A stretch of 64,000 bases of DNA from Leptolyngbyaceae cyanobacterium (GTDB lineage Bacteria > Cyanobacteriota > Cyanobacteriia > Phormidesmidales > Phormidesmidaceae). Made by a program: the position numbers and the translations under genes. Location: NCBI GenBank assembly GCA_965263355.1, contig CBDHHL010000056.1, positions 1,952,001 through 2,016,000 of the forward strand, read 5' to 3'. Below are positions 21,689 through 59,912 of this stretch, piece after piece. Every line of letters starts with the position of its first letter. Position 1 is the stretch's first letter. Below the pieces are notes generated by a model. The model did no database searches and was not told the DNA's origin. It saw only the letters and a program-made list of their open reading frames with translations.

Positions 21689-22840
21689 ATGGCCAATCAG
21701 CAGTACCCATCAGACAATAAACAATGCCAAGAAGGCAAGGCACAGTTTTCGATCGCAAACGCCTTTTATCGCCCCTCCAGCCAAATAGGTCGTGATTTAG
21801 CCGTACTGGCCGCTAATCTCTACCGACAGCAGCATGGACAATTGCGAGTGATTGATGCGATGACGGGTTGCGGGGTGCGATCGCTACGCTACCATTTGGA
21901 AGCGGGTGCAGACTGGGTCTGGGCAAACGAAGGCAATCCGGAACTGGCAGGCTTGCTGCGTCGCAACTTGCGCCGGGGAATGACAGCAGGTTCCTATGAC
22001 ATTACCCACCAGGATGCCAACCAGCTATTTTTTAGGTGTGCCCAGCAGCAGGACTATTACGACCTGATTGACCTTGACAGCTTTGGCAGCCCTACAGCGT
22101 TTATCAACACAGCACTTTGGGCGATTAAGCTGGGGGGACTACTCTATCTCACCAGTACCGATGGCCGAACGACCAGTGGCCATGCCCTAGAAAAAAGCGT
22201 TCAGGTTTATGGGGCCTGTGCCCGCAGTCATCCGGCGGTGCATGAACAGGGGCTACGACTACTAATAGGGTGTGCCGCCCAGCAAGCGGCTGCCAAAGGA
22301 TTTCAGATTGAGCCAGTATTTTCGATTTTTAATGGGTCGATCCATCGGGTGATGGTGCGAGTGATCACAGGCACCTGGCAACATGAAAACTATGGTTTTT
22401 TGGCCTATTGCCATAGCTGTGGACAGTTTCGTACGGCTAATTGGCGACAATTGGGGCAGCTAGCATGTGATGGTTGTGGTGCGGCCCCAGTAGTCAGTGG
22501 ACCGATGTGGCTGGGGCCACTCCATGATGTAGCCTATATAGGCCAAATGGCGGCCTTAGCAACCCAGTGGAATTGGCCATCGCAAATTCACCGATTGTTG
22601 ACGATAATGAGCCAAGAAGCTGCTCTGCCCCCCTATTACTATCCTTTAGCGGAGATTGGTCGTCGAGGACAGATGGACATTCCAGCAAGGGAGCCGTTGA
22701 TTGAGGGAATTTGCGATCGCACCGATGCCTCAGGCGATCACTACCGTGCCACGCGTACCCACCTAAATCCTCAAGCGATTAAAACCAATGCTCCCCTAAG
22801 GGACTGCCTGGCAGTTGCTCGCTCCTTATCTGTTGGTTAA
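21689..22840 (+). CDS. Trm1-like tRNA (guanine-N2)-methyltransferase
   Basis: FYRP...RDL, DAMTGCGVRSLRY, DLIDLDSFGSP, LTSTD, CxxC...CxxC, GPMWLGPL. Confidence 0.8.
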   Translation: MANQQYPSDNKQCQEGKAQFSIANAFYRPSSQIGRDLAVLAANLYRQQHGQLRVIDAMTGCGVRSLRYHLEAGADWVWANEGNPELAGLLRRNLRRGMTAGSYDITHQDANQLFFRCAQQQDYYDLIDLDSFGSPTAFINTALWAIKLGGLLYLTSTDGRTTSGHALEKSVQVYGACARSHPAVHEQGLRLLIGCAAQQAAAKGFQIEPVFSIFNGSIHRVMVRVITGTWQHENYGFLAYCHSCGQFRTANWRQLGQLACDGCGAAPVVSGPMWLGPLHDVAYIGQMAALATQWNWPSQIHRLLTIMSQEAALPPYYYPLAEIGRRGQMDIPAREPLIEGICDRTDASGDHYRATRTHLNPQAIKTNAPLRDCLAVARSLSVG

Positions 22841-22847
22841 TTGAGAC

Positions 22848-22958
22848 TAATACGCAATCCAGACTGATAGCGTCCGGCATCAAAGGGCATCCACAAGGGA
22901 GTGCCCCTACAGGATTATCCATTTTGAATCGGGTTAAATAAATTCGGATTTGGTATAA
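22848..22958. mobile_element. Short MITE-like element containing a GTAG-type REP palindrome
   Basis: Imperfect terminal inverted repeats TAATACGCAATCC and GGATTTGGTATAA; internal GGGCATCCACAAGGGAGTGCCCCTAC (22885-22910). Confidence 0.5.
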
Positions 22959-23000
22959 CTTCCTATTCCGTCGGTTTGCTTAGCAAGTTGTTGGCAAAAA

Positions 23001-23636
23001 CTAACTGGCGAGGGTTTCTGTGTAAGACTCTTCTAACACAGCGCCAAAATTCTGTTTTGCATAGGTATTCTTCATGTGTTTCTTGACCGTATTCAATGCA
23101 ATATTAAGTTTTGCCGCGATTTTTTGATATGTGTAACCAATTCGGTGAAGTGCCCATACATCGGCTTCACGAGGACTGAAGTCGTACCGAATTGTTTCGG
23201 TAATGGCAAGATTTTCCCAGGATTGTTTTTGGTTTTCTAAAATCACCAAAATATGGGGATCAACATTGTTGCCTAGGTTAAACCATCTTACCCGAATACG
23301 AATATGGTCATAAGATTGTTTAAGGGTTAATTCCGATTCGGCGATAGTCAGATGATTAGGAAAGTTTTTGCGACTATTAATCAAGATCTGACATGTTTTC
23401 CAAATTTCTTGAGGAATCTGGTTTATACAAGGTTGATATTGGGCGATGCGATCGCAAATACTACAAGCAAGCGTATTACTACCTACCCATTGACCGCCTT
23501 CAGTCAAAATTAAAATGCCATCAATCCAGTTAGCAAAAACAGAATCTATGGGACTATTGGTCTTCGGTATAAGCTGATTGGGTAACGATGTAGATGGATA
23601 GCTAGAAAGCGTGCTTAAGGAACTTTGAGATGTCAT
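23001..23636 (-). CDS. LuxR-type HTH transcriptional regulator
   Basis: C-terminal FSPREADV...YQKIAAKLNIALNTVKKHMKN; PAS-like N-terminal region. Confidence 0.85.
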   Translation of the reverse strand: MTSQSSLSTLSSYPSTSLPNQLIPKTNSPIDSVFANWIDGILILTEGGQWVGSNTLACSICDRIAQYQPCINQIPQEIWKTCQILINSRKNFPNHLTIAESELTLKQSYDHIRIRVRWFNLGNNVDPHILVILENQKQSWENLAITETIRYDFSPREADVWALHRIGYTYQKIAAKLNIALNTVKKHMKNTYAKQNFGAVLEESYTETLAS

Positions 23637-23905
23637 GGTCCTCTCAGGATGATCAAACTTGGGGACAAAAAGTCGAGAAATCCGAGGCCCATTAAGGGGC
23701 TAACGACAGGGGTAGATGCGTCAGTTACTACTATTTAATACGGTGAACCAGGTAAATCTATGCACACTTCTACCAATCTCATATCAGCTTTCTGTCTGAC
23801 TCAATAAATGACCAAGTTACTTTTGCAAATCATTCTTCATGGTTATAGATTTGTGTCATTTTCCCGAACGGCAATATTACCCCCTCTTCATTAAAAAACC
23901 TTGCA

Positions 23906-25405
23906 CTAAGTCTTGTTCAATACTGTATCCAAAAAATCAATGGGGGTGATTAAAAGATGAGGATATTTCACATCGCCCAGGCGTTTGCCCTGTTGATAGT
24001 GATACTCCATCAAGCATTGAGGAATCTCTGGCGAGTCATATATTTTAATTGGTTGCAGTTGTCCTAAAAGACGGGCGTGGCGATAATGAAAACTACGGCA
24101 GAGTAACTTTTCTAAAGTCTGAGCTAATTGATCTGCAGGTTGACTGATTTGGTCAATTAATAAACTATAGTGGGGATGCGGCAATCGGCTAGGGACAAGA
24201 CATTTGAATGTAGTATTTACTAGATTTAGCTGGGTTAGCACCTGACTGACAAAATCAAGGGTTAGTTTTTCACCCACCATATCGCTGGTGTTATTGCTGC
24301 GACCGATAAAGCATAAACAGGGCGTAGTCTGATAATAGTGGGTGGGTTGGATGCGATCGCACATCCGGTAGCGATACAGTCCCCCCTTCTGGGAAATAAT
24401 CACACTATAGGTCTGTCCTAGTTCTAGCTCATGAAGTAAATAAATCTGGCCCGCGTCATCCTCAAACTCAAAGAAAACTTCTGTGACTAAAGGCACACAG
24501 CCGTTTGCTCGCATCAGGGGAACCGTCATGGGCGCTTCCGTTGCTAACAGCCCCTTACCCTGGATCAGAGTGTTAGGAAAATGCACCCGCAACCCACTGA
24601 CCTGATCTGCTGCCATGGCACTATCCCAACAAGAGATCAACTTGAGCTGAGGCCATAGTGCTTGCCAGTCAATTATTTCGTGATTTAACAACTGCGACCG
24701 TTCTGCGGAAAGCTGACCGTTGAGCTGAGATCGCAATGTCTGACGATGTGTTTGAATATAGTCAAGTTGTACTGTTAGAAAACTAGGACTCCAAATAGAA
24801 ATAATCTCCAGGCTTTCTTCTAGCAACAGCGTTTTACATAGGGTAGATTGAAACACTTCTGGTGGTTGAGGTTTATGGGCATCGGGGGGTAATACCAGAA
24901 ACGGTTTTAGCAGCCAGCGTAACCATGGATCTAAGTATTCAGAATCGTCCTGTAAACCTTCGGTAGTTTCTCCTGGAGCCAACAGCTTAGGAGAGATACA
25001 CATATATACTTTACCCGTCTTAAAGGTGGGACCATGGGTAATCAAATCATGGGCCCAGATACAAAACAACGTGTTAAACGACTTTCTCAGGGCATGCGTA
25101 TAGGGGATACGTTTGGCTGGGCCACTACTGCCTGATGTTTGCTCATAGAAGAGAATTGGGTCTGGGGTCAGAGTATGTTTATTCTCTATCCAGGGATGCA
25201 AATCTTCATAGGTCACAATAGGTAGCTTGTGCCAGTCCTCGACCGAGATAATTCCTAAGGACTGGCCATAGTCACTCTGACTGAGTTGTTGAACCAGTAC
25301 TCTTTGTAACTCTCGTTGTGCCGTCTGAGGCTGAGACAATGCCTGATAAAAACGGTTTGCGGTAGGTGCCAACAGGGCACCAATCCCTTTAATCAGCCAC
25401 TGCAT
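23906..25405 (-). CDS. GH3 family acyl-acid amido synthetase-like protein
   Basis: LPIVTYED, QTSGSSG..KRIP, LLATEA, GGLYRY..D, FIGR, GEK; GAGGAG RBS before ATG 25405. Confidence 0.88.
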   Translation of the reverse strand: MQWLIKGIGALLAPTANRFYQALSQPQTAQRELQRVLVQQLSQSDYGQSLGIISVEDWHKLPIVTYEDLHPWIENKHTLTPDPILFYEQTSGSSGPAKRIPYTHALRKSFNTLFCIWAHDLITHGPTFKTGKVYMCISPKLLAPGETTEGLQDDSEYLDPWLRWLLKPFLVLPPDAHKPQPPEVFQSTLCKTLLLEESLEIISIWSPSFLTVQLDYIQTHRQTLRSQLNGQLSAERSQLLNHEIIDWQALWPQLKLISCWDSAMAADQVSGLRVHFPNTLIQGKGLLATEAPMTVPLMRANGCVPLVTEVFFEFEDDAGQIYLLHELELGQTYSVIISQKGGLYRYRMCDRIQPTHYYQTTPCLCFIGRSNNTSDMVGEKLTLDFVSQVLTQLNLVNTTFKCLVPSRLPHPHYSLLIDQISQPADQLAQTLEKLLCRSFHYRHARLLGQLQPIKIYDSPEIPQCLMEYHYQQGKRLGDVKYPHLLITPIDFLDTVLNKT

Positions 25406-26042
25406 GGTTGGCCTCCTCGGTCTCACTATCTGGCTCACCGATGGTTTTATTGGGGTAGAGTTCACTACCTGCTGCTAAAAAGCTGCCCGCTGTTATGGTA
25501 GCTCCTGGGCCAATATATGAGCCTGCGCCAATAAAGCTGTCATCACCAATGGTGATGGGTTTTAGGTATAGCATTAAGTTGTCGCGGCGAGGTTTAACAA
25601 TATGACTGTAGAGTCCCACCTGATGGCCAAAGACAACGTTATCGCCAATGGTTAACAGCCCCCGATCGGCAATTTCTAAGCCCGGTGTCCAGTAGACTTG
25701 TTTGCCTATCTGGGCTCCCCATAGGCGTAACCATATGGAAAATAGACCGGGCACTAGCCTTAATAGGGTTTCTAATGCTGGGAAAGCGATATAAATGAGT
25801 TGTAATTGGTGGCTTCCCCACCAGGGAGAATAATTTTCTCCCTGGAGATAGCTGATGCCATTTTTGAGGGGATAGATTTGCTGGTGGAGTCGATAGACAA
25901 GAACGGGAAACCCGTAAAGAAAGAAAATACATAGCATTAAACTCCACAGGCTATGCTCCCAGATACTGTAGACGAGGGAGAGACCGGCTAAGCCCAACGT
26001 TAGGGCTGGGAAAAAGGATAAAAACTTACTTAACAGGGTCAT
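25389..26042 (-). CDS. Membrane-anchored hexapeptide-repeat acyltransferase
   Basis: WGAQIGKQV, LTIGDNVVFG, ITIGDDSFIGAGSYIGPGATI (left-handed beta-helix). Confidence 0.8.
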   Translation of the reverse strand: MTLLSKFLSFFPALTLGLAGLSLVYSIWEHSLWSLMLCIFFLYGFPVLVYRLHQQIYPLKNGISYLQGENYSPWWGSHQLQLIYIAFPALETLLRLVPGLFSIWLRLWGAQIGKQVYWTPGLEIADRGLLTIGDNVVFGHQVGLYSHIVKPRRDNLMLYLKPITIGDDSFIGAGSYIGPGATITAGSFLAAGSELYPNKTIGEPDSETEEANHAVAD

Positions 26043-26253
26043 GATTAGAGCGGGAGCGGGGACCTACCCAGATAGCGGCCCCGGTGACCAGGGGAATTAA
26101 GGCAAAGATGCCACCAAAGAGCAGGGGATATGTTTTAGCTGCGGGCACAGTTAAAACGATGGCAAAGACTAGACCGCAGTAAAGTAATGCGGCAAAGGGA
26201 ATGGCGCAGATGATCCAGAACATCAGGCGCTCATTGGATTCTATCGATGACAT
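26026..26253 (-). CDS. Small two-TM membrane protein
   Basis: 75 aa, two hydrophobic helices, overlaps the downstream acyltransferase start. Confidence 0.65.
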   Translation of the reverse strand: MSSIESNERLMFWIICAIPFAALLYCGLVFAIVLTVPAAKTYPLLFGGIFALIPLVTGAAIWVGPRSRSNHDPVK

Positions 26254-26318
26254 AGGGTAGAACCAGGTAATGAATTGGATAGGAGTTCAGTCTAGCGAAT
26301 GGGGATGGGCAAGTGTTG

Positions 26319-27134
26319 TCATTGATCGGTATCAATCATTTTTTTGGTGTGCTTTGAGCAAATGGCAAAATCGGCTGCCTGGGGTCCCTCCGTGTTCACG
26401 TTCGTAGGATCTATCGGATAAATCAGTTGTCTCCATAATCTCAACTTACTGTTCTCACCTAGAGTAGATGGCCACTGGACTGACTGATATAAGGTGCCGT
26501 GAAGGCGATCCCACAGCTTAAAATTGGCACCATAATTACAGGCATGCGCAGCACTATGATGATGCCAGCCATGGTCCTGAGGCAACACTAACCAGGGCGA
26601 TAGCCAACCATACAATCGACTGTCTATGGCCGGACTAAACTGACTATGTCGCCACAGGTCTAAGGCTGCAGTCAAGCTAATACCCACAAGGTAAGCGTCA
26701 GGATCATCTAACACATAAATAAACAATCCGTGCACCCACAAGTACACAATCAAAAAACTACTCCACAGTGTATTGCGCGACGTGCCTAAGACATCCATGG
26801 TGCTCACTGTATGATGCACCTGATGGGCAAACCACCCCCAGCGACTGTGGAGAAATCGATGGTTCCAGTAGTAGAGATAGTCGACTGCAACAAAACTCAA
26901 CAGAAATGCTAAACCACCAGACAATAAAACACAATGGCTCCATCCAGGAAATAGTTGCTGATACAACCACTGCAGTAGGGTGAGCTGTAATAGGGGAATC
27001 AAGAGACCCTGAATCCATAGACCAGTACTGTCTAGAATCCAGTCCCTAAAAGGTTTTTGCACCAATTCTGACCAGCTTCGCCAGAGGGTGAGCCCCACAA
27101 GAAGAACAAAAGTACCAAAAACAACCATGGTCAT
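26319..27134 (-). CDS. Sterol desaturase / fatty acid hydroxylase family protein
   Basis: His boxes YWNHRFLH, HQVHH, WRH, DHGWHH; NYG...LWDRLHGT. Confidence 0.9.
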   Translation of the reverse strand: MTMVVFGTFVLLVGLTLWRSWSELVQKPFRDWILDSTGLWIQGLLIPLLQLTLLQWLYQQLFPGWSHCVLLSGGLAFLLSFVAVDYLYYWNHRFLHSRWGWFAHQVHHTVSTMDVLGTSRNTLWSSFLIVYLWVHGLFIYVLDDPDAYLVGISLTAALDLWRHSQFSPAIDSRLYGWLSPWLVLPQDHGWHHHSAAHACNYGANFKLWDRLHGTLYQSVQWPSTLGENSKLRLWRQLIYPIDPTNVNTEGPQAADFAICSKHTKKMIDTDQ

Positions 27135-27142
27135 AATTTGGC

Positions 27143-28183
27143 CTATACCCAAAACATGACGTCAGCAGACTTGTCGGGCAAGGTGCGAGGATCCTTGCCT
27201 GCAGCAATGGCATCTCGAATGGATTCGACAAAAATGTGAATGGTGTCAGCTGGGGTGTGGTGAAAGTGAGTGCCGTATTTTGCGATCGCATCCCCCTGCA
27301 CTCCTAACGCCACAATATCTTGATCAATAATGCGTTGTGCCGTCCACCGCACCAGGGGTTTTGCTAGCCAATTCCATAGGCCATAGTTAAAGGTGACATC
27401 GGTATACACCAGCGTAGAAGTCTCTGTTTCTGGAATCGACTGACTGGTAATAAAACAGCGCCGATGAGGCCCCATGGTGTACTCTACACTCGTCACATTG
27501 GGCATATGAAAAGAGTCTCGATGGTAGATTTCATTACCCTGTGGGTTTAAAAACCAACGCGACCAGCCCAGGTTATTGGTCTCATTGCGATAGGTCGCTG
27601 TCACGGTGCCCCGGTGTCGAGTTACCGTCATCGCCAGCTGCTGTTGTCGCGCTGTGCGAAAGATGCCAGGATGCACCGAGACCGTATGGGGAATGTCGAT
27701 AAAGTTCTCAGCGCAGTTCGTCACACTATTAGCAAACCGATTGATTACCCGCACGGTTTCCCAACCCGGTGCTTGATAATGGGGCATGGCAAACGGCGGC
27801 ATATCCAATGTGCCCCGCAGCCTCACATACACATACCCATCTTGCTCGCAGGTGTCATAGGTTTTAGCACAGCGATTGGGGATAGGCGTAATCTGCGCTC
27901 CTTCAGCAGGGACATTGGTGACCTGCCCTGTCTGGTCATATTGCCAACCATGGTAGGGACATTGCAGTTGCCCTTGATTGACGTGCCCTCCAGACAGTCG
28001 CGTATTGCGATGGAGACAGCGATCCCGTAAGGCCACTGGCTGACCATTGGCACCGCGAAAAATCACCAGCCATTCATCTAGAACAGTGCGGTGCAAAACC
28101 GTTTTAGCATTGAGCTGGGCGCTAAGGGCAACGACATACCAAAAGTCTTCAAACTGAATTGGGATAGTGATCGGAGGTTCCAT
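27143..28183 (-). CDS. Rieske non-heme iron oxygenase 3
   Basis: DRCLHR...CPYHGW Rieske motif; ENFIDIPHTVSVH mononuclear Fe motif. Confidence 0.92.
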   Translation of the reverse strand: MEPPITIPIQFEDFWYVVALSAQLNAKTVLHRTVLDEWLVIFRGANGQPVALRDRCLHRNTRLSGGHVNQGQLQCPYHGWQYDQTGQVTNVPAEGAQITPIPNRCAKTYDTCEQDGYVYVRLRGTLDMPPFAMPHYQAPGWETVRVINRFANSVTNCAENFIDIPHTVSVHPGIFRTARQQQLAMTVTRHRGTVTATYRNETNNLGWSRWFLNPQGNEIYHRDSFHMPNVTSVEYTMGPHRRCFITSQSIPETETSTLVYTDVTFNYGLWNWLAKPLVRWTAQRIIDQDIVALGVQGDAIAKYGTHFHHTPADTIHIFVESIRDAIAAGKDPRTLPDKSADVMFWV

Positions 28184-28457
28184 AGGGACAAATTTCCAGG
28201 TCGCGGGTGACGTCAAGCTGACAGGCAAGGCGGGCATTAGGACAGTCTGGGGCCAGCAGGTCCAGCAGTTCTTGTTCATCGGTATCTGCTGGCGGAACGT
28301 CACCGGTAACCGTGACTAAACAGGTACCGCAGATGCCAGTGCGACAGCCAAATAGGATGGGAGAATTTTGGATGGTGAGAACGTCAGCCAGAGGCACGTG
28401 TGGGTTGAGGATCATGGCGGCATGATCGGTGTTAGGAAAAGAGATTTTACAGGACAT
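28149..28457 (-). CDS. 2Fe-2S ferredoxin
   Basis: FGCRTGICGTC...RLACQ. Confidence 0.9.
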   Translation of the reverse strand: MSCKISFPNTDHAAMILNPHVPLADVLTIQNSPILFGCRTGICGTCLVTVTGDVPPADTDEQELLDLLAPDCPNARLACQLDVTRDLEICPYGTSDHYPNSV

Positions 28458-28461
28458 TGCC

Positions 28462-29583
28462 TCATCCCCTCCGACTATGCTCAGGTGAAAGCCCAACGCC
28501 TTCTGCCTGGGGAGAAGGAGAGATAGCGCTTAGACGTTGTTTTTTGGATAAAGTAGGTTCGTTGTTCAAGGCCCCTCTCCCTAGTACGGACCACTTGGAA
28601 GGCACTAACCCATTCACATATCTGACATAGTGAGCGATGGGCGCATCTACTGGCAACAGTCGCTCGGTACTAAAGCGAATATTGTCGTAAATCATGCCAT
28701 CTTCACCGCGTAGAGCATAGTAGCTCAACCGTGTTAGCCACAACAGTAGATGAGTCATTATCCACCCAAGTAAACCTGGGCGTTTCTTGGTCACATAAAT
28801 CGGTTGAATCAATGTTTCTCTCATACCTGTCTCTTCTGAGACCATCGGTCGATAGGCATAGAGCATATGTAGTTCAGGCAGCCAACGCACCTCTTTCATC
28901 ATGGTAAGCAGCCCCAAACAGCCATGGGCATAGCGCATGGAATAGGCATAGCGGGGACCTAAAATGGCTCGACCTAATCGTTCTCGCCAGTTAGTATTGA
29001 GAAACTCGCCGCTGAGGGTAAAGTCAATTTGTTCCCCCTCTTGCTGCAGTGACAGTTCTAAGTCGACGGGCAAATGGTGGACTGTTTGCAGGTGCTGCAC
29101 ATCAATGCCATTAATCATACAAATGTGATGATGACACTTGCGAGTCAGGGGCTTGTCTGCAACCACCGCTAACTCATGGCCCTTGAGTTGATCAAAGTCT
29201 GCAACAGGCATCGGTGCCACCTGATCTGGGTAAATCCAAATAAACCCATACTTTTCTTCCGTGGCATAGGACGATAACGTCGCACTGGGGGGGATATGTT
29301 CCTGGCAGGGAATGTCCTGGCATTGGCCCTCTCCATCAAAGGCCCAGTGATGGAAAAAACAACGGACCTGGTTACCGTCAACCCTGCCGATGCCTAAGTC
29401 GGTGCCCATATGGGGGCAATAGGCGTCCAATGCCCGGACTTGACCATCCTCACCCCGGAATAGGGCAATGTGTTGACCACAAATGTCAAAGGATTTAACG
29501 GTTTCTTTAGGAATTTCTTTGGATGCTGCCACCAGGTACCATCCTTTAGCCACTATATCCCAATTGTTAAATAGTGTTGTCAT
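28462..29583 (-). CDS. Rieske non-heme iron oxygenase 2
   Basis: YCPHMG...CFFHHW; NGIDVQHLQTVH. Confidence 0.92.
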   Translation of the reverse strand: MTTLFNNWDIVAKGWYLVAASKEIPKETVKSFDICGQHIALFRGEDGQVRALDAYCPHMGTDLGIGRVDGNQVRCFFHHWAFDGEGQCQDIPCQEHIPPSATLSSYATEEKYGFIWIYPDQVAPMPVADFDQLKGHELAVVADKPLTRKCHHHICMINGIDVQHLQTVHHLPVDLELSLQQEGEQIDFTLSGEFLNTNWRERLGRAILGPRYAYSMRYAHGCLGLLTMMKEVRWLPELHMLYAYRPMVSEETGMRETLIQPIYVTKKRPGLLGWIMTHLLLWLTRLSYYALRGEDGMIYDNIRFSTERLLPVDAPIAHYVRYVNGLVPSKWSVLGRGALNNEPTLSKKQRLSAISPSPQAEGVGLSPEHSRRG

Positions 29584-30814
29584 GGGTTTTTTCCATATGT
29601 ACATTAATATTTCCGCCTGCGGCAGGTGATATTGGCGATACAGCGTCAAATTTTGCCAAAACCATATCTTGAAAAAATCTGCTCAAGGCTCTCTGCTGTA
29701 TCTGCAAATACTTATCAATCGAGGCCTTGCCCATAATTGCCATAGTGCGATTACTCGACCAGACGTAATCCAACGGTTCTAAATATGCTTGGTAAGATGA
29801 TCTGGCCTCTTGGTGGGTTTTATAGCTGCGGTGTAAGCCATCGGATTCTTGGGTAAAGCATGCCTGCATCATGTGTTTTGCGTCGGCCTCATCCATGGCA
29901 AAGATGTGCGATCGCAACAATTTATACACCCTGGAATACAATGCTGGATCGTGCCAAAAAATACCATTCACCGCCACTGAAAATTGCTGATGATCGTGCT
30001 GACACCCCCGAATGCCAAGATTAGCCACCAGAGTTTCAAACCGGGTGGGTTGGGGTAAACACTGAATCACTTCATGGGACAGTAGGGTGGAACTATTAAA
30101 GTGAAAACTCTCATCCATAAAGTGATAAAACGAGATTTTAGATGGAATAGGGGTATTTTCTGGATCGTCTTGGGTTTGATAGTAGCGACTGAGCTGATGC
30201 TGCACGAGTTTGCCATTGAGGGTACGCAGACCTCGGACAGTAAAATATTGACAAGCGAGAAAACTATTACAGGCTGAAATCAGTCCAAATGCCTGCAGCT
30301 GTAGTCTCTTCCACCATAGTTTAAGGGAATTTGTATCCCCAAAAATCATGGTTTCTGTAAAGGGTCCCCGCATGGGGTAGCTAAAGAGTCGCTGCCCCAA
30401 TAATGTTTGCTCCGTTTGTTCTGCCACAGTCTGAAATGCACTGATATGGGCCCGCTCTTGGGAAGATTCTAGATCCAGCATGTCGCAAACAGTCCGAAAC
30501 CCCTCGTGGGCATAGAGCGCAGCCGCACTGGTTTGGTTAAAAAAGATAGTGGCAATCTCAGCCGAGATAATTTGGCAGTAATAGGCCACCCAATAAAGCT
30601 GATTCAACACCGTTCGTTGGGACTCGCTGGATTGGTCCCACAGAGGGGTGCCGTACAGTAGTGAAAAAACCTCAGGGTTCCAATAGTGATCACGGCACTG
30701 GTCATAGCTAAATGCCTGACCAGCATTATCTAACAGCGTTGTATGGTCTTGCTGCTGATTGCGCCGATAGTTAATGTCTAGCCGACGTTGCAGCAGGGGA
30801 TTCTTGCTATCCAT
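29567..30814 (-). CDS. CylC/AurF-like dimetal-carboxylate enzyme (putative halogenase or N-oxygenase)
   Basis: YWNPE.FSLLYGTPLW, QIISAEIAT, ESSQERAH and YHFMDESFH match the pattern I recognise from cyanobacterial CylC homologs. Confidence 0.75.
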   Translation of the reverse strand: MDSKNPLLQRRLDINYRRNQQQDHTTLLDNAGQAFSYDQCRDHYWNPEVFSLLYGTPLWDQSSESQRTVLNQLYWVAYYCQIISAEIATIFFNQTSAAALYAHEGFRTVCDMLDLESSQERAHISAFQTVAEQTEQTLLGQRLFSYPMRGPFTETMIFGDTNSLKLWWKRLQLQAFGLISACNSFLACQYFTVRGLRTLNGKLVQHQLSRYYQTQDDPENTPIPSKISFYHFMDESFHFNSSTLLSHEVIQCLPQPTRFETLVANLGIRGCQHDHQQFSVAVNGIFWHDPALYSRVYKLLRSHIFAMDEADAKHMMQACFTQESDGLHRSYKTHQEARSSYQAYLEPLDYVWSSNRTMAIMGKASIDKYLQIQQRALSRFFQDMVLAKFDAVSPISPAAGGNINVHMEKTHDNTI

Positions 30815-31748
30815 AACTAGCAGCTTCCTCCGCACTTAGGGGTGTAAATAAATCTTGGCTTTCTAACTGGTGAACAATGTCATAATTAGTCTTGGTCATT
30901 AGGGATTTTAGGAGCTGCAGCCTCTGATGACTATGGCCGACGGTGTCTAACTGTTGCAAAATTTGCATGCGTTGAGGACGCGAGAGATGGCCTTTAGTGG
31001 TTGCGATCGCACTTAATACCCGCTGTGGTCCCACCCGCACCATCTGCAAAAAGGCAGCCAAACAGTCCACAATGGCAGTCTCACTATCGCAGGATAGCTC
31101 CGCCTGGTTAAACAAGATCACCCCCACTCCATGGTGCCGAGACTCTACCTGTAAAAAACTGTGAAACAACTCCCTCAGAGCAGCATCCGTACAGCTCCTG
31201 GCTAAGCTGCGATAATGGGTCAACCCCCACCCCTCTAGCACCACTTGCAATACAAATAGCAGCACAGTTTTGTCAGCACTCTCGACAATCTCGGACAGTA
31301 ACTGTAAGAATGGATCCTTGGGTGCAGCAGATACGCCATCTACTGCAAGATAGGGCAGGACATAGGGTTGCAGCTGGGCCAGATGAGTTGTTTCATCCGC
31401 CGTGAACAAACTGTATAACATTCGTTCTTGAGTGCTCTCGGCCATTAATACCATCTTGGCCATATAGCCCACACCAGCCTGCTCAATCCATAAAGATTCT
31501 TGTAACAGTAGCTGATTAAGTCGTTGTAAAATTTGTTGCTGCTCCAGAACAGTAGCTGCTTGAAAAATAGACACCCGATTTAAGGCGAAATAGTCTGCTG
31601 GCCAGTAGATAGGACATTCACCAGCCATAGACCTCCCAAGCAGATCTGGTTCTCCTAGGGCAGCCATCAAAACCCGATTGAGCTTGTTATCTGAGTCGAG
31701 GGTTGGCAAGTCAAAACCAGCTATTTGACCATGGTTTATTCCCATCAT
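30807..31748 (-). CDS. Ferritin-like diiron protein
   Basis: IEQAG..Y, ADETTH, LEGWG...Y and VESRH give two E...ExxH sets; GAGGAG RBS and ATGA overlap. Confidence 0.8.
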   Translation of the reverse strand: MMGINHGQIAGFDLPTLDSDNKLNRVLMAALGEPDLLGRSMAGECPIYWPADYFALNRVSIFQAATVLEQQQILQRLNQLLLQESLWIEQAGVGYMAKMVLMAESTQERMLYSLFTADETTHLAQLQPYVLPYLAVDGVSAAPKDPFLQLLSEIVESADKTVLLFVLQVVLEGWGLTHYRSLARSCTDAALRELFHSFLQVESRHHGVGVILFNQAELSCDSETAIVDCLAAFLQMVRVGPQRVLSAIATTKGHLSRPQRMQILQQLDTVGHSHQRLQLLKSLMTKTNYDIVHQLESQDLFTPLSAEEAASYG

Positions 31749-32806
31749 GTCACACTCCTCCAGTCTCCCCAAGTCAATGCCTTTTGCCGATTGGTATGTT
31801 GGGCAAACTGCAAGATCGATTGGTCTGCTTTTAGGGGTGTTTTAAAATCAAACCGAATGCCTTGAAATACTTGAATATCTCCAGTTGCAAAGTAGGCAGC
31901 AACCTGTCGAGTAATCCATAGAACAACAGGATTAATTAGTTTGCCACTAAAGCGTTTTGGCGTGATTAATATAGTCCAGCCCTCGGTTCTGCCCCCTGCC
32001 ATGGGCCGCAGAGCAAACATAATATGAAAGTGAAAAAAGTCTGGCCCTACGGTGACGGTGCCCGTACTGCCATACCAGTAGCACATTTTATAGGTCACCT
32101 CATTTTTATAGAGCGGACGAATCAATTTGACAAACCGGGAAGCCTCACCGCCACGGGTTGTATTATCTAGACAAAGAGCATTGTCATTCAAAATCCTGGC
32201 CTTAAACCGGACCTCCAGGGGGAGATTATGGACTGAATTAAAATGATGAGCATCAATGGCATTGACCATCAACACATTGGGATGACAATTACGCTCAAAG
32301 CGATAACTTAACACCGCATCACAGTCGACCCCAGCTAGCTCCGGTACATAGGGTGATGGCTGCCCCGGTTGCTCACCAGTCCAAACCCAAATCATGCCAT
32401 ATTGTTCAGCTGTCGGCCATGCATATAGTTTGGCGTTAGCCATCACATCACGGTGGTCACCACAGACAGGGATCTCAAGGCACTGCCCCGTAGTATCAAA
32501 CTGCCAATGATGTAGAGGACAACGAATTGTCTCACCATCTACCTTGCCCTGGGCTAATGCTGCTCCCATATGAGGACAGTAGCCATCTAAGGCAATCACT
32601 TGCCGACGACGCGTCCGATAGAGAACCAGGTCTCTTCCCATCAAGGTTAACGATTTTACCTGTCCAACTTTCAACTCGCGACAGGGCATCGCCCAATACC
32701 AGCCTTCAATAAAGCGATCAGGCCGATTAAAAACAGGATTTTTCTCACCATTTGACACCAACCGACTGATGAGATTTTGAGACACGGTTACAGAGTGACT
32801 ATTCAT
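31745..32806 (-). CDS. Rieske non-heme iron oxygenase 1
   Basis: YCPHMG...CPLHHW; NAIDAHHFNSVH. Confidence 0.92.
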   Translation of the reverse strand: MNSHSVTVSQNLISRLVSNGEKNPVFNRPDRFIEGWYWAMPCRELKVGQVKSLTLMGRDLVLYRTRRRQVIALDGYCPHMGAALAQGKVDGETIRCPLHHWQFDTTGQCLEIPVCGDHRDVMANAKLYAWPTAEQYGMIWVWTGEQPGQPSPYVPELAGVDCDAVLSYRFERNCHPNVLMVNAIDAHHFNSVHNLPLEVRFKARILNDNALCLDNTTRGGEASRFVKLIRPLYKNEVTYKMCYWYGSTGTVTVGPDFFHFHIMFALRPMAGGRTEGWTILITPKRFSGKLINPVVLWITRQVAAYFATGDIQVFQGIRFDFKTPLKADQSILQFAQHTNRQKALTWGDWRSVT

Positions 32807-32810
32807 ACTC

Positions 32811-33560
32811 CTAGGCCACTAAGGTTTGATTGCGACCAAACCACATCCGTCGCCCAGCGGCTGTCAGGTTCTCGGCACAGATTTCTGTCAGGCATACCAA
32901 TTCATCTCCCTGGCTATGGTCCGGATTGGCTCGCTCAAAGAATTGAATATGGGGGTCAGACTTTCGCTCTGGTGGCACTGTTCCCAAAATAGGCGATAAC
33001 TTTTGGGGCTGCGCAAAACGTACAATTCCGATGGTTGGATTATAGTTATCGCCAAATTGTTGTCGAGCTAAGGTATCCATCAGTTGTTGCATGGGCTCTG
33101 GTGTCGGCTGATCGTAGCAAGGGTAAAATGTTTGCCAAAATGTTGGCAGCAGTCGATAGGTGCGAAACCCCGAAGATATAAGTAACCAAAAGAGACGTTT
33201 CTCGGGGTGGCGCAGCTGATTGATCGCCTGAATCCAGGCCCGTGGTAACGTAGCACTACTCCAGGCGGAGGGATCCACAATGGTATCGCCAGAGTACACA
33301 ACACTAATGGGTTCTCCCTTGACCGTGACATCGTAAAGTCGCAGTGTGGAAAATCCTTTTAATTGGTTGAGTTTATTTTTGATCAATAAAACCCAGTTTT
33401 TACCCGCTAAATCGGCGGCAAACGTGGTTAAATTTACACCGCTAAAATGATGCTGCAGTAGACGATACATGGCAACACGATCGTCATTTTCTAATTGAGT
33501 AATGGACACCAGTTGGGAATACATCATGGCTGACAAATAAATTGATTGTGTTTCCCTCAA
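32811..33560 (-). CDS. GNAT-like hypothetical protein, first gene of the cluster
   Basis: LKGFST, VVYSGDTIVDPSAWSS, WLLISSGFRTYR, NP...GDELVCL; the acyltransferase fold is inferred. Confidence 0.6.
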   Translation of the reverse strand: MRETQSIYLSAMMYSQLVSITQLENDDRVAMYRLLQHHFSGVNLTTFAADLAGKNWVLLIKNKLNQLKGFSTLRLYDVTVKGEPISVVYSGDTIVDPSAWSSATLPRAWIQAINQLRHPEKRLFWLLISSGFRTYRLLPTFWQTFYPCYDQPTPEPMQQLMDTLARQQFGDNYNPTIGIVRFAQPQKLSPILGTVPPERKSDPHIQFFERANPDHSQGDELVCLTEICAENLTAAGRRMWFGRNQTLVA

Positions 33561-33843
33561 TCAAGCCCCTTGTACATAAAGTAGGACTTTGCACTCCTAA
33601 TTGCATTTAGCCCTATTTCGCTGGGAATACGCCATGAGGCCCATGAACTTATACCGCAGAACTGGTCCTAGCAAGAAAGTCGGCGAAGTGATCCGAAGCT
33701 GCCAATTGAGATCGGACCGTGGATATTCGGATTAAAATGGCCTGAACTTTATAAAGGTTGTGTAAAAAAACCTTGAATACCGTAACTTCGTTTGAACGAA
33801 TCGCTAAGTTGAGACTAGTTGATCTACATTTCTAACTGATTGC

Positions 33844-34281
33844 ATGTACTCACTACAGTCTGTTAAGGCTCGCGAAAAATCTAACAAAAAGATGGCAAAT
33901 GTCGTTGTAGTGGGGGCTGTAGGCGCGGTCATGGCCGTGGGTACATGGGTGGTCCTGTTTACGACCGGTGCAATTACCTTAGGCGGCGTTCCCTACTCAG
34001 TATTGATGACGGTATGGCAAAACCCAGCGGCGCGCTCAGCCCTTTTGGGGGGCGAGGCCACTAAATTGCACGACCTGATGGGCGAATTGGGCATTGAATA
34101 TGCCATCAAGGAATATTATCGCGATCGCATCAAGGATCCGGTCAAACTAGACCAGCACATCCACCAAATTTTGTTTGATCGAACGGGTTATGTAGGTGAA
34201 GCGTATACGGTCAAAGGCCGCACCCTAGTGCTGAAAGATCCGTCTAAAATTGAGAAACTTCAAAATTGTCCAAATTGTTAA
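33844..34281 (+). CDS. Conserved hypothetical protein with N-terminal TM segment
   Basis: LGGVP, LDQHIHQILFDRTGYVG; start may be the ATG at 33892. Confidence 0.65.
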   Translation: MYSLQSVKAREKSNKKMANVVVVGAVGAVMAVGTWVVLFTTGAITLGGVPYSVLMTVWQNPAARSALLGGEATKLHDLMGELGIEYAIKEYYRDRIKDPVKLDQHIHQILFDRTGYVGEAYTVKGRTLVLKDPSKIEKLQNCPNC

Positions 34282-35879
34282 AAAGGCATTTTTGATTTGA
34301 TTTGATTGATCAATAGTTTTGCCTCAGGAATACCTAACAGCAAAGCTGCTCCTGAAAATACCCCTAGACTGATTGCCCCCGCACCACACAGGACAATCAG
34401 GTTAATTAAAAAGCCTTCGGTGCCCAGCCAGGTCTCTAGACCTAAACGACTACCCCAGGCAGCTAGCCCCGATAGACCACTGCTAATCAGTAGCAAGACT
34501 AGCGGTCTAGCCCAGTCTAGCCAGGGTAAACCATTTATTTTGCGAGATAGCAAAATCAGCAGAGCCACCATAGATACCAGATTGACACCTACGGTAGCAA
34601 GCACTAAACCTGGGGCACCATAACGGCTGATTAAAATAAAGTCCAACAGAGCATTAAGGCCAATGTTAAATAAGCTAATGCGGAACGGGGTATCGCCATC
34701 GCCAAGGGCATAAAACACACGCACCAACACATCCCGACCCAAGTAGACAAACATGCCGACGCCGTAGGCAATTAACACTGAGGTCACTAACTGGGAGGCA
34801 CTTTTATCAAAGGCTCCCCGTTCGTACACCACTCGCACCATAGGCAAGGCCAGGGTAATAAATAGGGCACTCAGCGGCAACATGGTTAGCGCAGTCAGCA
34901 ATAGTCCTTGTCGAATTCGCTGCTTAAGTTCATCCCAATGGATCGGGTCCGCTAGACGGGCAAAAATAGGTAAAAAGGGCACCAAGATTACGTTGGAAAT
35001 AATGCCCAGGGGCGTCTGTACTAATAAGTTTGCATAGTCCAGAGCCGCAATTGTCCCCGGTAGAGCGGCGGCAAAAAACAGATCCACCTGCACATTGATC
35101 TGCATCATGCCCGATGAAAAGGTGGCTGGCCCCAACACGTTGAGGACGTCTTTAACCGCCGGGTCCTTAGTATTAAACCGCAGCCGCAGCCGTCCTAATC
35201 CCTGCTGCCAAAGCACAGGCACCTGAACCAGCCACTGTAGAACCGCCCCCACCAGGGTGCCAATGGCTAAAGCCGCACCACCGACAAGGGCATAACGCGG
35301 TTCTGCAATTTTGTTGCCTAAGGTAAAAAACACCACCCCTAAGGACACAATTACCGCACTGCTGGAAAACAATGGACTAATGGAGGGTAACCAGTAATGG
35401 TCAGCCGCATTCAGAGTGCCAAACCCAATGCCAATGAGACCGGCAAACATGGCCATAGGGGCCATAATCCGCAGCTGCAAAATAGCAATGTCGCGGGTAA
35501 TGGCTCCAGCTTCAGTATTTTCGCTCAAACGATTTCCTAAGACACCAATAATGGATGGTGCAAAAATCACAATGGCCAGGGTGACAAATAATAGGCCAAT
35601 GCCCACTAGCGTAGTAATAGTTTCTACCAGGGGGGCAATCTCATCTTTTTTACGGTTGGCCACACCGCGCACAATGGCACTGTGAAACGGGCCATTGATG
35701 CCCCCTAATAGAACCAGCAAAAATCCTGGGATAGCGTAGGCCAAACCATAGGCATCCGCCACTGGGCCAACGGCAAATGTGGCAGCAATCGCCTGGGTCC
35801 TTACTAAGCCAAAGACTTTACTAATTAGGGTTGCGATCGCAACAATACCGGCAATGCCAGCTAAAGAACGTTTGGTCAC
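34278..35879 (-). CDS. murJ: Lipid II flippase MurJ
   Basis: ATLISKVFGLVR, GGINGPFHSA, YERGAF, RVFYALGD. Confidence 0.95.
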   Translation of the reverse strand: MTKRSLAGIAGIVAIATLISKVFGLVRTQAIAATFAVGPVADAYGLAYAIPGFLLVLLGGINGPFHSAIVRGVANRKKDEIAPLVETITTLVGIGLLFVTLAIVIFAPSIIGVLGNRLSENTEAGAITRDIAILQLRIMAPMAMFAGLIGIGFGTLNAADHYWLPSISPLFSSSAVIVSLGVVFFTLGNKIAEPRYALVGGAALAIGTLVGAVLQWLVQVPVLWQQGLGRLRLRFNTKDPAVKDVLNVLGPATFSSGMMQINVQVDLFFAAALPGTIAALDYANLLVQTPLGIISNVILVPFLPIFARLADPIHWDELKQRIRQGLLLTALTMLPLSALFITLALPMVRVVYERGAFDKSASQLVTSVLIAYGVGMFVYLGRDVLVRVFYALGDGDTPFRISLFNIGLNALLDFILISRYGAPGLVLATVGVNLVSMVALLILLSRKINGLPWLDWARPLVLLLISSGLSGLAAWGSRLGLETWLGTEGFLINLIVLCGAGAISLGVFSGAALLLGIPEAKLLINQIKSKMPF

Positions 35880-36195
35880 TACATCCTCAACACTGAATAT
35901 TCAACTATGGCGTGTTGTGGAGCCAATCACAAACCTTTAGATCACAAACAACAAACCGGGAGACACAACCACCCTGCCCCTCTGCCAGTTTCCATTCCGC
36001 GATTTCACAGGAATTAGAGGCTATCAAGTTTCGAACATCCGTTCAATACGTATTTTTACGGTTAAAATTTTCTATCAATAGAAAAAAAGGCTGGATTTCC
36101 ACAGTTTTGATATCTAAAAACCTAATCTGGTCAGCGTTTGACCAAACTTCCCAACCTACACTGAACTAACACCTGTTTCTCAAACTTTATTCCCT

Positions 36196-59902: not shown

Positions 59903-59912
59903 GAAAACCTCT

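Follow-up and report, generated by a model that had tools for sequence, protein, structure and literature searches.

An eleven-gene cyanobacterial cluster of Rieske, diiron and GH3-family enzymes, possibly for an oxidized amino-lipid

Introduction

What might a compact set of iron-dependent oxygenases, acyltransferases and an amide-forming ligase produce in the absence of polyketide synthase (PKS) or nonribosomal peptide synthetase (NRPS) genes? The question is raised by a gene cluster on the minus strand of the 64-kb stretch of cyanobacterial DNA analysed here ("the window"), for which a preliminary description had proposed a tailored, then acylated or amidated, possibly chlorinated product. 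Here we combine domain, structural and comparative evidence on the cluster and weigh the explanations of its role.

Gene content and organization

The cluster spans 33560 to 23906, and ORF calls and Pfam place genes A to K in tight succession in the order listed, followed by the LuxR-type gene L:

A, 32811..33560, minus strand: GNAT-fold acyltransferase-like protein, 249-aa ORF (AlphaFold2, Foldseek and VIA)
B, 31745..32806, minus strand: Rieske oxygenase 1, KshA/SxtT-like (Pfam Rieske, 5.3e-23)
C, 30807..31772, minus strand: ferritin-like diiron-carboxylate protein (Pfam Ferritin_2, 1.4e-4, below cut-off)
D, 29567..30835, minus strand: CylC-like dimetal-carboxylate enzyme of the Rieske/PriA clade (Pfam AurF, 3.8e-4, below cut-off)
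E, 28462..29649, minus strand: Rieske oxygenase 2 (Pfam Rieske, 1e-24)
F, 28149..28496, minus strand: plant-type 2Fe-2S ferredoxin (Pfam Fer2, 9.3e-9)
G, 27143..28303, minus strand: Rieske oxygenase 3 with VanA-type catalytic domain (Pfam Rieske, 1.3e-24; VanA_C, 1.5e-7)
H, 26319..27152, minus strand: membrane diiron protein of the FA_hydroxylase ("sterol desaturase") family (Pfam FA_hydroxylase, 2.9e-23)
I, 26026..26253, minus strand: lineage-specific small membrane protein, 75 aa (hydrophobic segments)
J, 25389..26042, minus strand: hexapeptide-repeat acyltransferase with N-terminal membrane anchor (Pfam Hexapep, 6.8e-11)
K, 23906..25465, minus strand: GH3-family adenylating amide synthetase (Pfam GH3, 1.5e-24; GH3_M, 1.1e-13; GH3_C, 5.1e-6)
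L, 23001..23636, minus strand: GerE/LuxR-type helix-turn-helix protein (Pfam GerE, 4e-8, residues 153–194)
Upstream of A, 33596..33770, minus strand: conserved, promoter-like non-coding blocks (alignment of 9 upstream regions)

The preliminary description spoke of ten genes; there are eleven, although its own list named all of them, in this order, and every one was recovered by ORF calling and Pfam where it had been placed. Its picture of mostly overlapping or nearly abutting genes is also borne out: when the longest ORFs are taken, neighbouring genes at 9 of the 10 junctions between A and K overlap or leave a 4-bp gap, and with the conserved later starts they either overlap or lie no more than 8 bp apart. 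Wider spacings separate H from I (65 bp) and K from L (269 bp). The likely starts are ATG 33527 or 33524 for A (a probable, conserved start, from homologue starts in the alignment), ATG 31748 for C (overlapping the B stop codon as ATGA), ATG 30814 for D, near 29583 for E, ATG 28457 for F (about 102 aa; homologues have 94–105 aa), 28183 for G (346 aa, with a 35-nt overlap with F, as at locus L001) and ATG 25405 for K.

As had been stated, the domain scan of the 64-kb window found no PKS or NRPS: PKS, NRPS, ACP and AMP-binding domains occur in none of the 34 other window ORFs of at least 200 aa, and no ORF anywhere in the window exceeds 749 aa. Exporter, resistance and carrier-protein genes are absent from both cluster and window, and by Pfam the cluster contains no transporter, ring-cleavage or beta-oxidation gene and no substrate-responsive regulator.

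Class membership, conservation and distribution

The cluster is a further member of the "Rieske-containing CylC-homologue" class catalogued in 2021 (Eusebio et al. 2021, BMC Genomics 22:633; PMC8406957). In that account, the class makes up 36 of 95 clusters, has no known product, contains two to four Rieske proteins per cluster and is reported chiefly in Nostocales and Oscillatoriales; the preliminary description was thus right about the literature. In our literature search no subsequent publication assigned a product to the class, and GH3 has 0 occurrences in the main text of PMC8406957. One Rieske/PriA-clade CylC homologue, three Rieske proteins, a sterol-desaturase/FA-hydroxylase protein, acyltransferases, a cyanobacterial host and the lack of FAAL, ACP and PKS are all shared with the class, whose homologues outside cyanobacteria are rare but existing. 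Nothing architectural differs; the window copy comes from a marine lineage resembling Leptothoe/Leptolyngbya PCC 7375, and its small membrane gene and LuxR-type neighbour are lineage-specific.

This co-oriented, eleven-gene cyanobacterial cluster is real and strongly conserved. All ten families A–H, J and K are found together in 18 of 47 genome loci, one of them in Bacteriovoracaceae, in a count where many incomplete loci are short contigs; the arrangement is therefore not due to chance. Across Cyanobacteriota the genes are conserved as a set, and this set recurs, rearranged, in Oligoflexus (9 of 10 families), Bacteriovoracaceae and Accumulibacter. When the phylum is sampled evenly, a D orthologue is present in 35 of 401 genomes, and among 34 sampled neighbourhoods D is accompanied by A in 26, B in 27, C in 28, F in 29, G in 27, H in 25, J in 24 and K in 21. 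Co-conservation, which the preliminary description had proposed as a test, is thus observed; together with the A–GH3 pairing and the Gln difference in D described below, it is new here. The least fixed member is E, near D in 17 of the 34 neighbourhoods and variable in position, while F lies immediately 3' of D, or of E, in 29. Other versions of the cluster are accompanied by Mpo1-like (2-hydroxy-fatty-acid dioxygenase family), MMPL and SDR genes; 10 of 47 loci carry the SDR gene within the cluster, and it is missing from the window lineage.

Two genes are of narrower distribution. Gene I is found at 80–89% identity in 8 close-relative loci and 2 metagenome loci, and in 0 of the 34 sampled neighbourhoods. 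L, in which Pfam matches neither an autoinducer-binding domain nor anything else in the N-terminal 150 residues, follows K in 7 loci, all from the closest relatives (the Leptothoe/PCC 7375 group), and is present in 0 of 34 neighbourhoods of the phylum sample. A LuxR gene does stand next to the cluster, as described earlier, but the link is lineage-specific and not general.

The iron-dependent enzymes

Both metal sites are intact in all three Rieske proteins. B has CxH..CxxH (residue 77) and NxxDxxHx4H (residue 182), the mononuclear-iron motif being kept in 41 of 41 homologues; 27 of 27 homologues of E, which is 31% identical to B, have both motifs, as do 28 of 28 homologues of G. The best PDB matches are KshA (3.3e-26) and SxtDIOX/SxtT for B, and NdmA, SxtDIOX and DdmC for G. 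Several paralogous alpha-only Rieske oxygenases are likewise found in three-component systems such as the NdmA/B/C caffeine demethylases and SxtT/GxtA/SxtDIOX; as there, the Rieske and mononuclear-iron motifs are intact, and the paralogues presumably act on different positions of one scaffold. Unlike NdmA/B/C-type systems, the cluster encodes no dedicated reductase, and its Rieske proteins are joined by two soluble and one membrane diiron enzyme.

D is 84% identical to Leptothoe/Leptolyngbya proteins, 63–71% identical across cyanobacterial families and 52–55% identical to homologues in Bdellovibrionota and Accumulibacter; the whole family reduces to 150 representatives at 50% identity clustering. 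It is homologous over its full length, at 27–36% identity, to CylC and NocO, described as proven dimetal-carboxylate (diiron) alkyl halogenases in PMC12101540, and, with QERAH and HFMDESFH motifs, it retains the E, QExxH and HxxDExxH pattern, 8 of the 9 signature residues named there (aligned positions in D: E86, Q119, E120, H123, Q205, H231, D234, E235 and H238). The ninth, equivalent to NocO-E252, is Gln in 124 of 124 members of the D clade, whereas 23 of 23 canonical homologues have Glu there. D also lacks two insertions (about 60 residues in total) that 4 of the 5 aligned canonical sequences contain, and has no FAAL–ACP neighbours of the kind present at canonical loci L048, L050 and L052; its clade is separate from the canonical, FAAL-ACP-linked homologues (SH-aLRT 100). 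Chlorination is one possible reaction of D.

The diiron ligands are kept in C as well as in D. E84/E89, E119xxH122, E172 and E202xxH205 of C are invariant in 24 sequences, and its AlphaFold2 model (pLDDT 87.8) is a helical bundle with weak Foldseek matches to a PaaA-like protein, AurF, CmlI, R2 and ADO; an acyl-ACP desaturase among its Atlas look-alikes (0.94) serves as a lead only. H keeps three His boxes (HRFLH, HQVHH and HGWHHH), and its sole NCBIfam match is OlsE, far below cut-off (40.9 bits versus 475). Hydrophobic segments predict that H, I and J are membrane proteins; J has two at its N-terminus, and its NCBIfam matches (Pls/PosA terminal domain, WcaF and LacA) are weak and all below cut-off.

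A conserved pair of GNAT-fold and GH3 genes

A has no match in Pfam or NCBIfam. Its AlphaFold2 model (mean pLDDT 90.1) matches AAC(2')-Ia in Foldseek (E 2.7e-6), and VIA-align ranks NatD at Z 12.6, with LasI (11.5) and FeeM (10.7) within the tie range. As modelled, the GNAT fold leaves the acyl donor and acceptor unspecified, since acetyltransferases score at least as well as FeeM and LasI. All three Pfam GH3 domains of K are above cut-off, and GH3 nucleotide motifs 1 and 3 are recognizable (TSGSSGPAK and GLYRYRMCD); a pattern search of K for motif 2 gave no match, no NCBIfam model matched, and PDB matches to plant GH3 proteins are weak (E 4e-8).

The pairing of A with a GH3 gene extends well beyond the Rieske/CylC class. 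Metagenome searches with A gave 51 evaluable loci: 21 show the gene order of the full cluster, and in 27 of the 30 of other architecture GH3 directly follows A; the rest include L115 (GH3 within 2 kb) and L094 (a Rieske gene, another ORF, then GH3). Tailoring sets at these other loci are Rieske, AurF-like, FA_desaturase or several B12-radical-SAM genes. Because the pair is conserved across far more distant clusters, A and K are more likely builders of the scaffold than finishers, and the order given in the preliminary description, with acylation or amidation last, is probably reversed.

The bacterial GH3 protein OlsH converts fatty acid, ATP and ornithine to N-acyl ornithine, and is presented as the only characterised bacterial GH3, yielding an N-acyl-ornithine lipid (PMC12493201, 2025). 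The FA_hydroxylase superfamily includes OlsE, which hydroxylates ornithine lipids; the same review states that such lipids have not so far been identified in cyanobacteria (PMC12971839). K resembles OlsH in family, in motifs 1 and 3 and in described operon context, with an acyltransferase and lipid-modifying enzymes. The partner of OlsH is an alpha/beta-hydrolase, whereas K is accompanied by a GNAT-fold protein and a hexapeptide transferase; by Pfam the cluster has neither an OlsI-type alpha/beta-hydrolase nor the OlsG methyltransferase, and, unlike the OlsH operon, it has six oxygenases attached.

What the cluster may produce

Since the only characterised bacterial GH3 makes an N-acyl-ornithine lipid, we tentatively favor an oxidised, possibly chlorinated, amide-linked (amino-)lipid made by the GH3 enzyme, the GNAT-fold protein and six iron enzymes, a reading that may well prove wrong, gene neighbourhood being indirect evidence. 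Like OlsH, K would adenylate a free fatty or fatty-derived acid and couple it with an amine or amino acid; further acyl or acetyl groups might be added by A and membrane-anchored J; and H, B/E/G and C/D could functionalise C–H bonds in the acyl chain or in the head group. F would supply electrons to the oxygenases and, as no reductase is encoded in the cluster, would be reduced by host enzymes. The substrate of D is probably not ACP-bound, its reaction being chlorination, hydroxylation or desaturation, and the product would be membrane-associated, not a classical PKS/NRPS metabolite. Of the "lipid or aromatic" scaffold suggested earlier, lipid is favored and aromatic disfavored on account of the three membrane-embedded proteins, the lipid-acting superfamily of H, and the Mpo1-like and MMPL genes of other versions.

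An unlikely competitor is a specialised-metabolite cluster, in which a fatty or aromatic acid becomes a diffusible, possibly chlorinated toxin, signal or allelochemical, with GH3 acting late under the LuxR-type regulator. The homology of D to proven halogenases (8 of 9 signature residues; PMC12101540), its patchy distribution (35 of 401 genomes) and the adjoining LuxR-type gene in the window and 7 close-relative loci fit such a product. However, exporter, resistance, PKS/NRPS and carrier-protein genes are absent from cluster and window, D is conserved to a degree unusual for a specialised pathway, three proteins are membrane-bound, GNAT–GH3 is a conserved core and no late add-on, and the LuxR gene, which has no autoinducer-domain match, occurs in none of the 34 sampled neighbourhoods.

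Ferredoxin and Rieske genes are typically arranged together in degradative systems, as they are here, and the nearest solved Rieske relatives include KshA, NdmA/B, DdmC and phthalate dioxygenase. Yet a catabolic or detoxifying pathway, breaking down or demethylating an imported lipid, osmolyte or aromatic with GH3 and GNAT conjugating an intermediate, seems very unlikely: the cluster lacks the transporter, ring-cleavage, beta-oxidation and regulatory genes named above, the functions of its two acyltransferases and its ATP-dependent amide ligase are anabolic, and biosynthetic SxtT and SxtDIOX stand in the same Rieske match lists. Tailoring of a triterpenoid (hopanoid or sterol), photosynthetic pigment or quinone is highly improbable. 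It would accommodate the sterol C4-methyl oxidase SdmA as best NCBIfam match of B, E and G (66–80 bits against a cut-off of 600), the SDR gene, recalling SdmB, in 10 of 47 loci, and H, whose FA_hydroxylase family includes sterol and carotenoid enzymes. But that SDR gene is missing from the window lineage, non-phototrophs (Oligoflexus, Bacteriovoracaceae and Accumulibacter) carry the cluster, and a squalene-hopene or oxidosqualene cyclase domain was not found in 3 of 5 cluster-carrying genomes scanned, including the 9.4-Mb Leptolyngbya sp. PCC 7375, the other two being MAGs that may be incomplete.

Upstream region and residence in the genome

The conserved blocks upstream of A gave no Rfam match. 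They include GGCTAAAT at 33612, and GGCTAA[AC]T occurs upstream of A in the window and 15 close-relative loci at variable distance from the start. The four HIP1 sites from which long residence had been proposed (24353, 27282, 29908 and 31003) were all found, with another at 23448 in the LuxR gene; the window has 26 against 0.57 expected from shuffles. Long residence is plausible, as HIP1 density and GC of the cluster are in line with those of the remainder of the window and the topology of the D tree tracks taxonomy.

Organization of the cluster

ORF calling places the eleven ORFs of the cluster on the minus strand, from 33560 down to 23906, with a LuxR-type gene after them at 23636–23001. The order of genes in the preliminary description was exact throughout, as follows.

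Genes of the cluster (minus strand, 33560–23906) and the gene after it, in order, with Pfam matches
A: GNAT-fold protein; no Pfam match
B: Rieske protein; Rieske
C: ferritin-like diiron protein; Ferritin_2, E 1.4e-4, under the curated cut-off
D: CylC-like protein; AurF, E 3.8e-4, under the curated cut-off
E: Rieske protein; Rieske
F: ferredoxin; Fer2
G: Rieske protein; Rieske and the VanA_C catalytic domain
H: sterol-desaturase-family protein; FA_hydroxylase
I: small membrane protein; no Pfam match
J: hexapeptide transferase; Hexapep
K: GH3 protein; three GH3 domains
L: LuxR-type gene, 23636–23001, minus strand; GerE

When the longest ORFs are taken, nine of the ten junctions from A to K are an overlap or a 4-bp gap. 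With starts supported by homologues they become overlaps of 4–35 nt or gaps of at most 8 bp, H–I (65 bp) being the exception, and K and L are 269 bp apart. The four HIP1 sites previously placed at 24353, 27282, 29908 and 31003 are indeed there. The cluster region (10.6 kb) holds five such sites, a density equal to that of the rest of the window (26 observed in all versus 0.57 expected), and its GC content is unremarkable.

The window is otherwise ordinary chromosome, with gyrB, mutL, miaA, clpP, hisG, rsmB and murJ, and its longest ORF has 749 aa. No PKS, NRPS or carrier domain was found in the window; PP-binding, AMP-binding and ketosynthase models matched neither the cluster nor the 34 other ORFs, which upholds the earlier view that no PKS or NRPS is present. 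Elsewhere in the window, a CHASE2-adenylate/guanylate cyclase (749 aa) adjoins a DUF928 protein (16078–19166), and a TIR-domain protein of 293 aa is encoded at 49232–50113. At 58043–63042, a DUF6492 protein comes after a protein of 619 aa that has a long N-terminal extension and a DHQ-synthase domain, with a PHP-domain protein and a UbiA prenyltransferase on the opposite strand.

Membership of a catalogued class

Eusebio et al. (2021; PMC8406957) sorted 95 clusters with CylC homologues into seven architectures. The Rieske-containing class accounted for 36 of the 95 in that cyanobacterial survey, none of them with a product; its clusters have a single CylC homologue together with between two and four Rieske proteins, and most also encode a member of the sterol-desaturase family. 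The CylC homologues of the class form one clade with the “PriA-containing” type of Synechocystis, and fall into the same sequence-similarity cluster as the rare homologues from outside cyanobacteria (PMC8406957). Our cluster has a single D within the Rieske/PriA clade, three Rieske proteins and one FA_hydroxylase protein, and neither a carrier protein nor FAAL nor PKS adjoins D. Since the description of the class fits, the statement in the preliminary description that Rieske-containing CylC clusters without a product had been noted is right, and the window holds a further member. GH3 is absent from the main text of PMC8406957, and neither a later product assignment for the class nor a GNAT–GH3 pairing was found in the literature searched. 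The cluster is thus a real, conserved and still-orphan pathway, a new member of a catalogued class, for which the hypothesis on the core chemistry developed below is testable and somewhat new.

Co-conservation of the cluster genes

A scan with D at one genome per species gave 47 loci, of which 18 hold all ten of the families A–H, J and K. Seventeen of these are cyanobacterial and have the gene order of the window; the other is from Bacteriovoracaceae and is rearranged. Three loci of Oligoflexus have nine of the ten families, and D, F, G, H, J and K are present in Accumulibacter loci. Among 401 genomes sampled evenly across the phylum, 45 gave a match to D, comprising 35 orthologues (53–83% identity) and 10 genomes with paralogues only (30–38%). 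Near 34 of the orthologues, several of which lie on short contigs, we found A in 26 cases, B in 27, C in 28, E in 17, F in 29, G in 27, H in 25, J in 24 and K in 21; on the same footing, I, L, MurJ and the neighbouring gene N were near none of the 34.

Two sub-modules recur, A-B-C and D-F-G-H-J-K, while the position of E varies. Only A-B-C-D stay clustered in L070–L072 (loci of the sampled genomes G150, G188 and G117), which probably represent the “PriA-containing” Synechocystis type of the 2021 paper. Both G117 and G150 have a further paralogue as well, at 31% identity, which in L051 stands in a bartoloside-like context.

Some loci carry additional genes. An SDR gene occurs in 10 of the 47, just upstream of C, following B in cyanobacteria and A elsewhere; it gave no tblastn match in the window, and is absent from the closest relatives of the window too. 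Mpo1-like and MMPL genes are found in some non-cyanobacterial versions.

Additional genes at D loci of other genomes
L017:8159-9001, SDR gene
L023:7986-8834, SDR gene
L043:8173-9030, SDR gene
L039:17754-18635, SDR gene
L034:2088-2942, SDR gene
L039:16440-16865, Mpo1-like gene
L042 and L074, Mpo1-like, fused to amidohydrolase
L076, MMPL gene

D and the CylC/NocO halogenases

The E, QExxH and HxxDExxH motifs of the halogenase NocO are reported to be conserved and, from its mutagenesis, to be needed for chlorination, and its E252 is predicted to lie outside the first sphere, leaving a chloride site (PMC12101540). Aligned with its paralogues, D keeps E86, Q119-E120-x-x-H123 and H231-x-x-D234-E235-x-x-H238. 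The position of E252 (in the numbering of that paper, mapped by alignment spacing) is Gln205 in D, which has eight of the nine residues of the active-site signature of the CylC/NocO halogenases. In a larger alignment the E252 equivalent is Gln in all 124 D-type sequences, members of the Rieske/PriA clade, versus Glu in all 23 canonical-like ones; three remoter sequences differ at other positions. Two insertions present in four of the five aligned canonical sequences are both missing from D. The CylC/NocO halogenases chlorinate with a diiron cofactor and act on fatty acyl chains bound to ACP, for which FAAL and ACP are encoded next to them. The genomic context of D differs as well: of the paralogue loci from the 401-genome sample, L048, L050 and L052 have the canonical FAAL-ACP-CylC(-PKS) layout, with FAAL and ACP genes that the window lacks, and the fourth, L051, has a bartoloside-like layout.

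As judged from its sequence, D is thus related to the halogenases but departs from their signature at one of the residues compared. A quick maximum-likelihood tree (IQ-TREE, 45 sequences) sets the D-type sequences apart from the canonical ones with SH-aLRT 100. All 34 rows from cyanobacteria group together (95) to the exclusion of the other phyla, and the window falls in a 17-row group of Leptothoe and Leptolyngbya PCC 7375 (99).

The superfamily of D is small, with 150 representatives at E ≤0.001 among 1.84 billion sequences, and its homologues carry the precomputed family PF28091. That the family is small and tightly conserved points to a defined, selectively important chemistry. The difference of Glu and Gln amounts to a natural experiment on what separates halogenation from other diiron outcomes.

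Motifs and folds of the other proteins

Both the Rieske site (CxH...CxxH) and the mononuclear-iron site ((D/E)xxHx4H) are kept in B, E and G, the latter also in all homologues (41/41, 27/27 and 28/28, respectively). Among solved structures, B is closest to KshA and SxtT/SxtDIOX, and G to NdmA, SxtDIOX and DdmC. The cluster has no gene for a ferredoxin reductase. H has the His boxes HRFLH, HQVHH and HGWHHH and three hydrophobic segments, and scores 83.2 bits against FA_hydroxylase (cut-off 31); its sole NCBIfam match, far under the cut-off, is to the ornithine-lipid hydroxylase OlsE. Hydrophobic segments occur in H, I and J.

K matches the N-terminal, middle and C-terminal GH3 domains (PF03321, 87.3 bits; PF23571, 51.5; PF23572, 27.6), all above the cut-off of 23.6. 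Against the reference motifs SSGTSxGxxK, YxxSE and GLYRYRxGD, motif 1 (TSGSSGPAK) and motif 3 (GLYRYRMCD) are seen and motif 2 was unmatched by the patterns used; among 25 homologues of K, motif 1 is found in 19 and motif 3 in 18.

The structure model of C (pLDDT 87.8) is a helical bundle, for which Foldseek gave weak matches to a PaaA-like protein, AurF, CmlI, R2 and aldehyde-deformylating oxygenase, and its ligands are the classical invariant set E, ExxH, E, ExxH. Atlas look-alikes of C include acyl-ACP desaturases at 0.94, which we record as a lead.

The model of A, built from 24 homologues (mean pLDDT 90.1), is a GNAT fold: Foldseek returned 177 matches at E ≤0.001, AAC(2')-Ia first, and those listed are GNAT-type acetyltransferases. 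By sequence, the window protein matches no Pfam GNAT family at E ≤0.01, and a Pfam scan of all 24 family members gave nothing significant (Acetyltransf_9 at E 0.044 in two). In VIA-align, NatD has the highest Z score (12.6); LasI, an AHL synthase (11.5), and FeeM, an N-acyl-amino-acid synthase (10.7), score in the same band, so the fold of A does not indicate donor or acceptor.

The GNAT–GH3 core

Searching metagenome contigs with the A alignment left 80 loci, 29 of which are short of downstream sequence. Among the 51 that could be evaluated, 21 have the full-cluster order and in 27 A is immediately followed by a GH3 gene; a further locus (L115) has it within 2 kb, another (L094) reads A, Rieske, another ORF and then GH3, and one has nothing recognisable after A. 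In the remoter loci, where A is 40–57% identical, the tailoring sets are other ones: one comprises Rieske, AurF-like and membrane FA_desaturase genes, and another a SPASM radical-SAM gene along with several genes for B12-binding radical-SAM proteins. The first of these sets is seen in L146, L153 and L160, which encode on the same strand a VanA-type Rieske protein, a 238-aa ORF, the A-like protein, GH3, an AurF-like diiron protein, a membrane FA_desaturase and a Rieske protein. Upstream of these three lie a 1035-aa FG-GAP/UnbV_ASPIC protein and, on the opposite strand, a TPR/Trans_reg_C regulator. In L132, L135, L140, L157 and L163 the A-like–GH3 pair stands amid several B12-binding radical-SAM genes, one SPASM radical-SAM gene and one Rieske gene, and this set may be the oxygen-independent tailoring counterpart of the iron-oxygenase set.

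The A–K pair is thus what stays constant in a wider family of clusters. Its retention across differing tailoring sets argues that A and K build the scaffold, which the oxygenases decorate.

A possible amino-lipid pathway

OlsH, the only biochemically characterised bacterial GH3 enzyme, joins a free fatty acid to ornithine with ATP, and its product is then O-acylated by a second enzyme (PMC12493201). H and OlsE are members of one superfamily (PMC12971839). From the precedent of OlsH, the kinship of H with OlsE, the presence of three membrane proteins and, in other versions of the cluster, of accessory genes of lipid type, we infer, tentatively and with less than even confidence, that the cluster encodes an amide-linked lipid pathway. 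K would activate and amidate a fatty acid, A and J would transfer further acyl groups, and H, B, E, G, C and D would functionalise C-H bonds with electrons supplied via F. The authors of the 2021 survey remarked that substrate activation is missing from clusters of this class (PMC8406957); GH3 may be its supplier. In the OlsH/OlsI pathway the GH3 gene shares an operon with OlsG and with OlsI, an alpha/beta-hydrolase O-acyltransferase, whereas neither is found from A to L, where Pfam detects no alpha/beta-hydrolase or methyltransferase domain.

A triterpenoid substrate is unlikely, because the squalene-hopene cyclase domain was not found in three of five owner genomes (two of the five being MAGs), and a role tied to photosynthesis is unlikely because the owners include non-phototrophs. 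A siderophore, which an N-oxygenase with an acyltransferase might make, was dropped for want of a transporter.

The amide-linked lipid pathway might be extended further, to a proposal that we consider rather unlikely as a whole: that of an ancient, undescribed class of bacterial membrane lipids. GH3 and a dedicated GNAT-fold protein would build an amino-lipid scaffold without ACP, a core common to cyanobacteria, Bdellovibrionota, Accumulibacter and many soil bacteria, and C-H bonds of the scaffold would be functionalised by oxygen-dependent iron enzymes in this cluster and by B12-radical-SAM enzymes in clusters of other lineages. D, CylC-like but with Gln in place of Glu, would then act on a lipid that is free or in the membrane, either as the first diiron halogenase independent of a carrier protein or as a diiron enzyme of different outcome.

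According to a 2026 review, no ornithine lipids have been identified in cyanobacteria (PMC12971839). If the GH3–GNAT core makes an amino lipid, cyanobacteria would gain a further lipid class, the GH3 genes widespread in bacteria would have a function, and there would be a CylC-type enzyme able to work without a carrier protein, an independence whose value for biocatalysis was highlighted in the 2021 survey (PMC8406957).

Regulation and the upstream region

The only Pfam match of L is the GerE HTH (residues 153–194); the autoinducer-binding domain of LuxR-type quorum-sensing regulators was not matched, and the N-terminal 150 residues have no Pfam match. L follows the cluster in the closest relatives only. 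In Leptolyngbya sp. PCC 7375 an SBP_bac_3/ion-channel (iGluR-like) gene (L001:16925-18061) lies between the GH3 and LuxR-type genes, where the window has its 269-bp gap.

An Rfam scan of 22000–36500 at E up to 1 gave no match and thus no clue to a riboswitch, and scans for promoters and terminators were uninformative (20 and 9 sites versus 18.3 and 11.3 expected). Alignment of nine upstream regions of close relatives revealed conserved non-coding blocks upstream of A (33596–33770, minus strand), including AACCTTTATAAA-like and TTCAT..GCCTCAT..TATTC..GGCTAAAT stretches. Upstream of A, the window and 15 relatives share the motif GGCTAA[AC]T, whose distance from the start codon varies, so the blocks are more likely a promoter with operator sites than a structured leader. 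Divergent from A, a 145-aa ORF on the plus strand (33844–34281), without known family and with one hydrophobic segment, is 73–88% conserved among close relatives and is present in two copies in L001 and L002.
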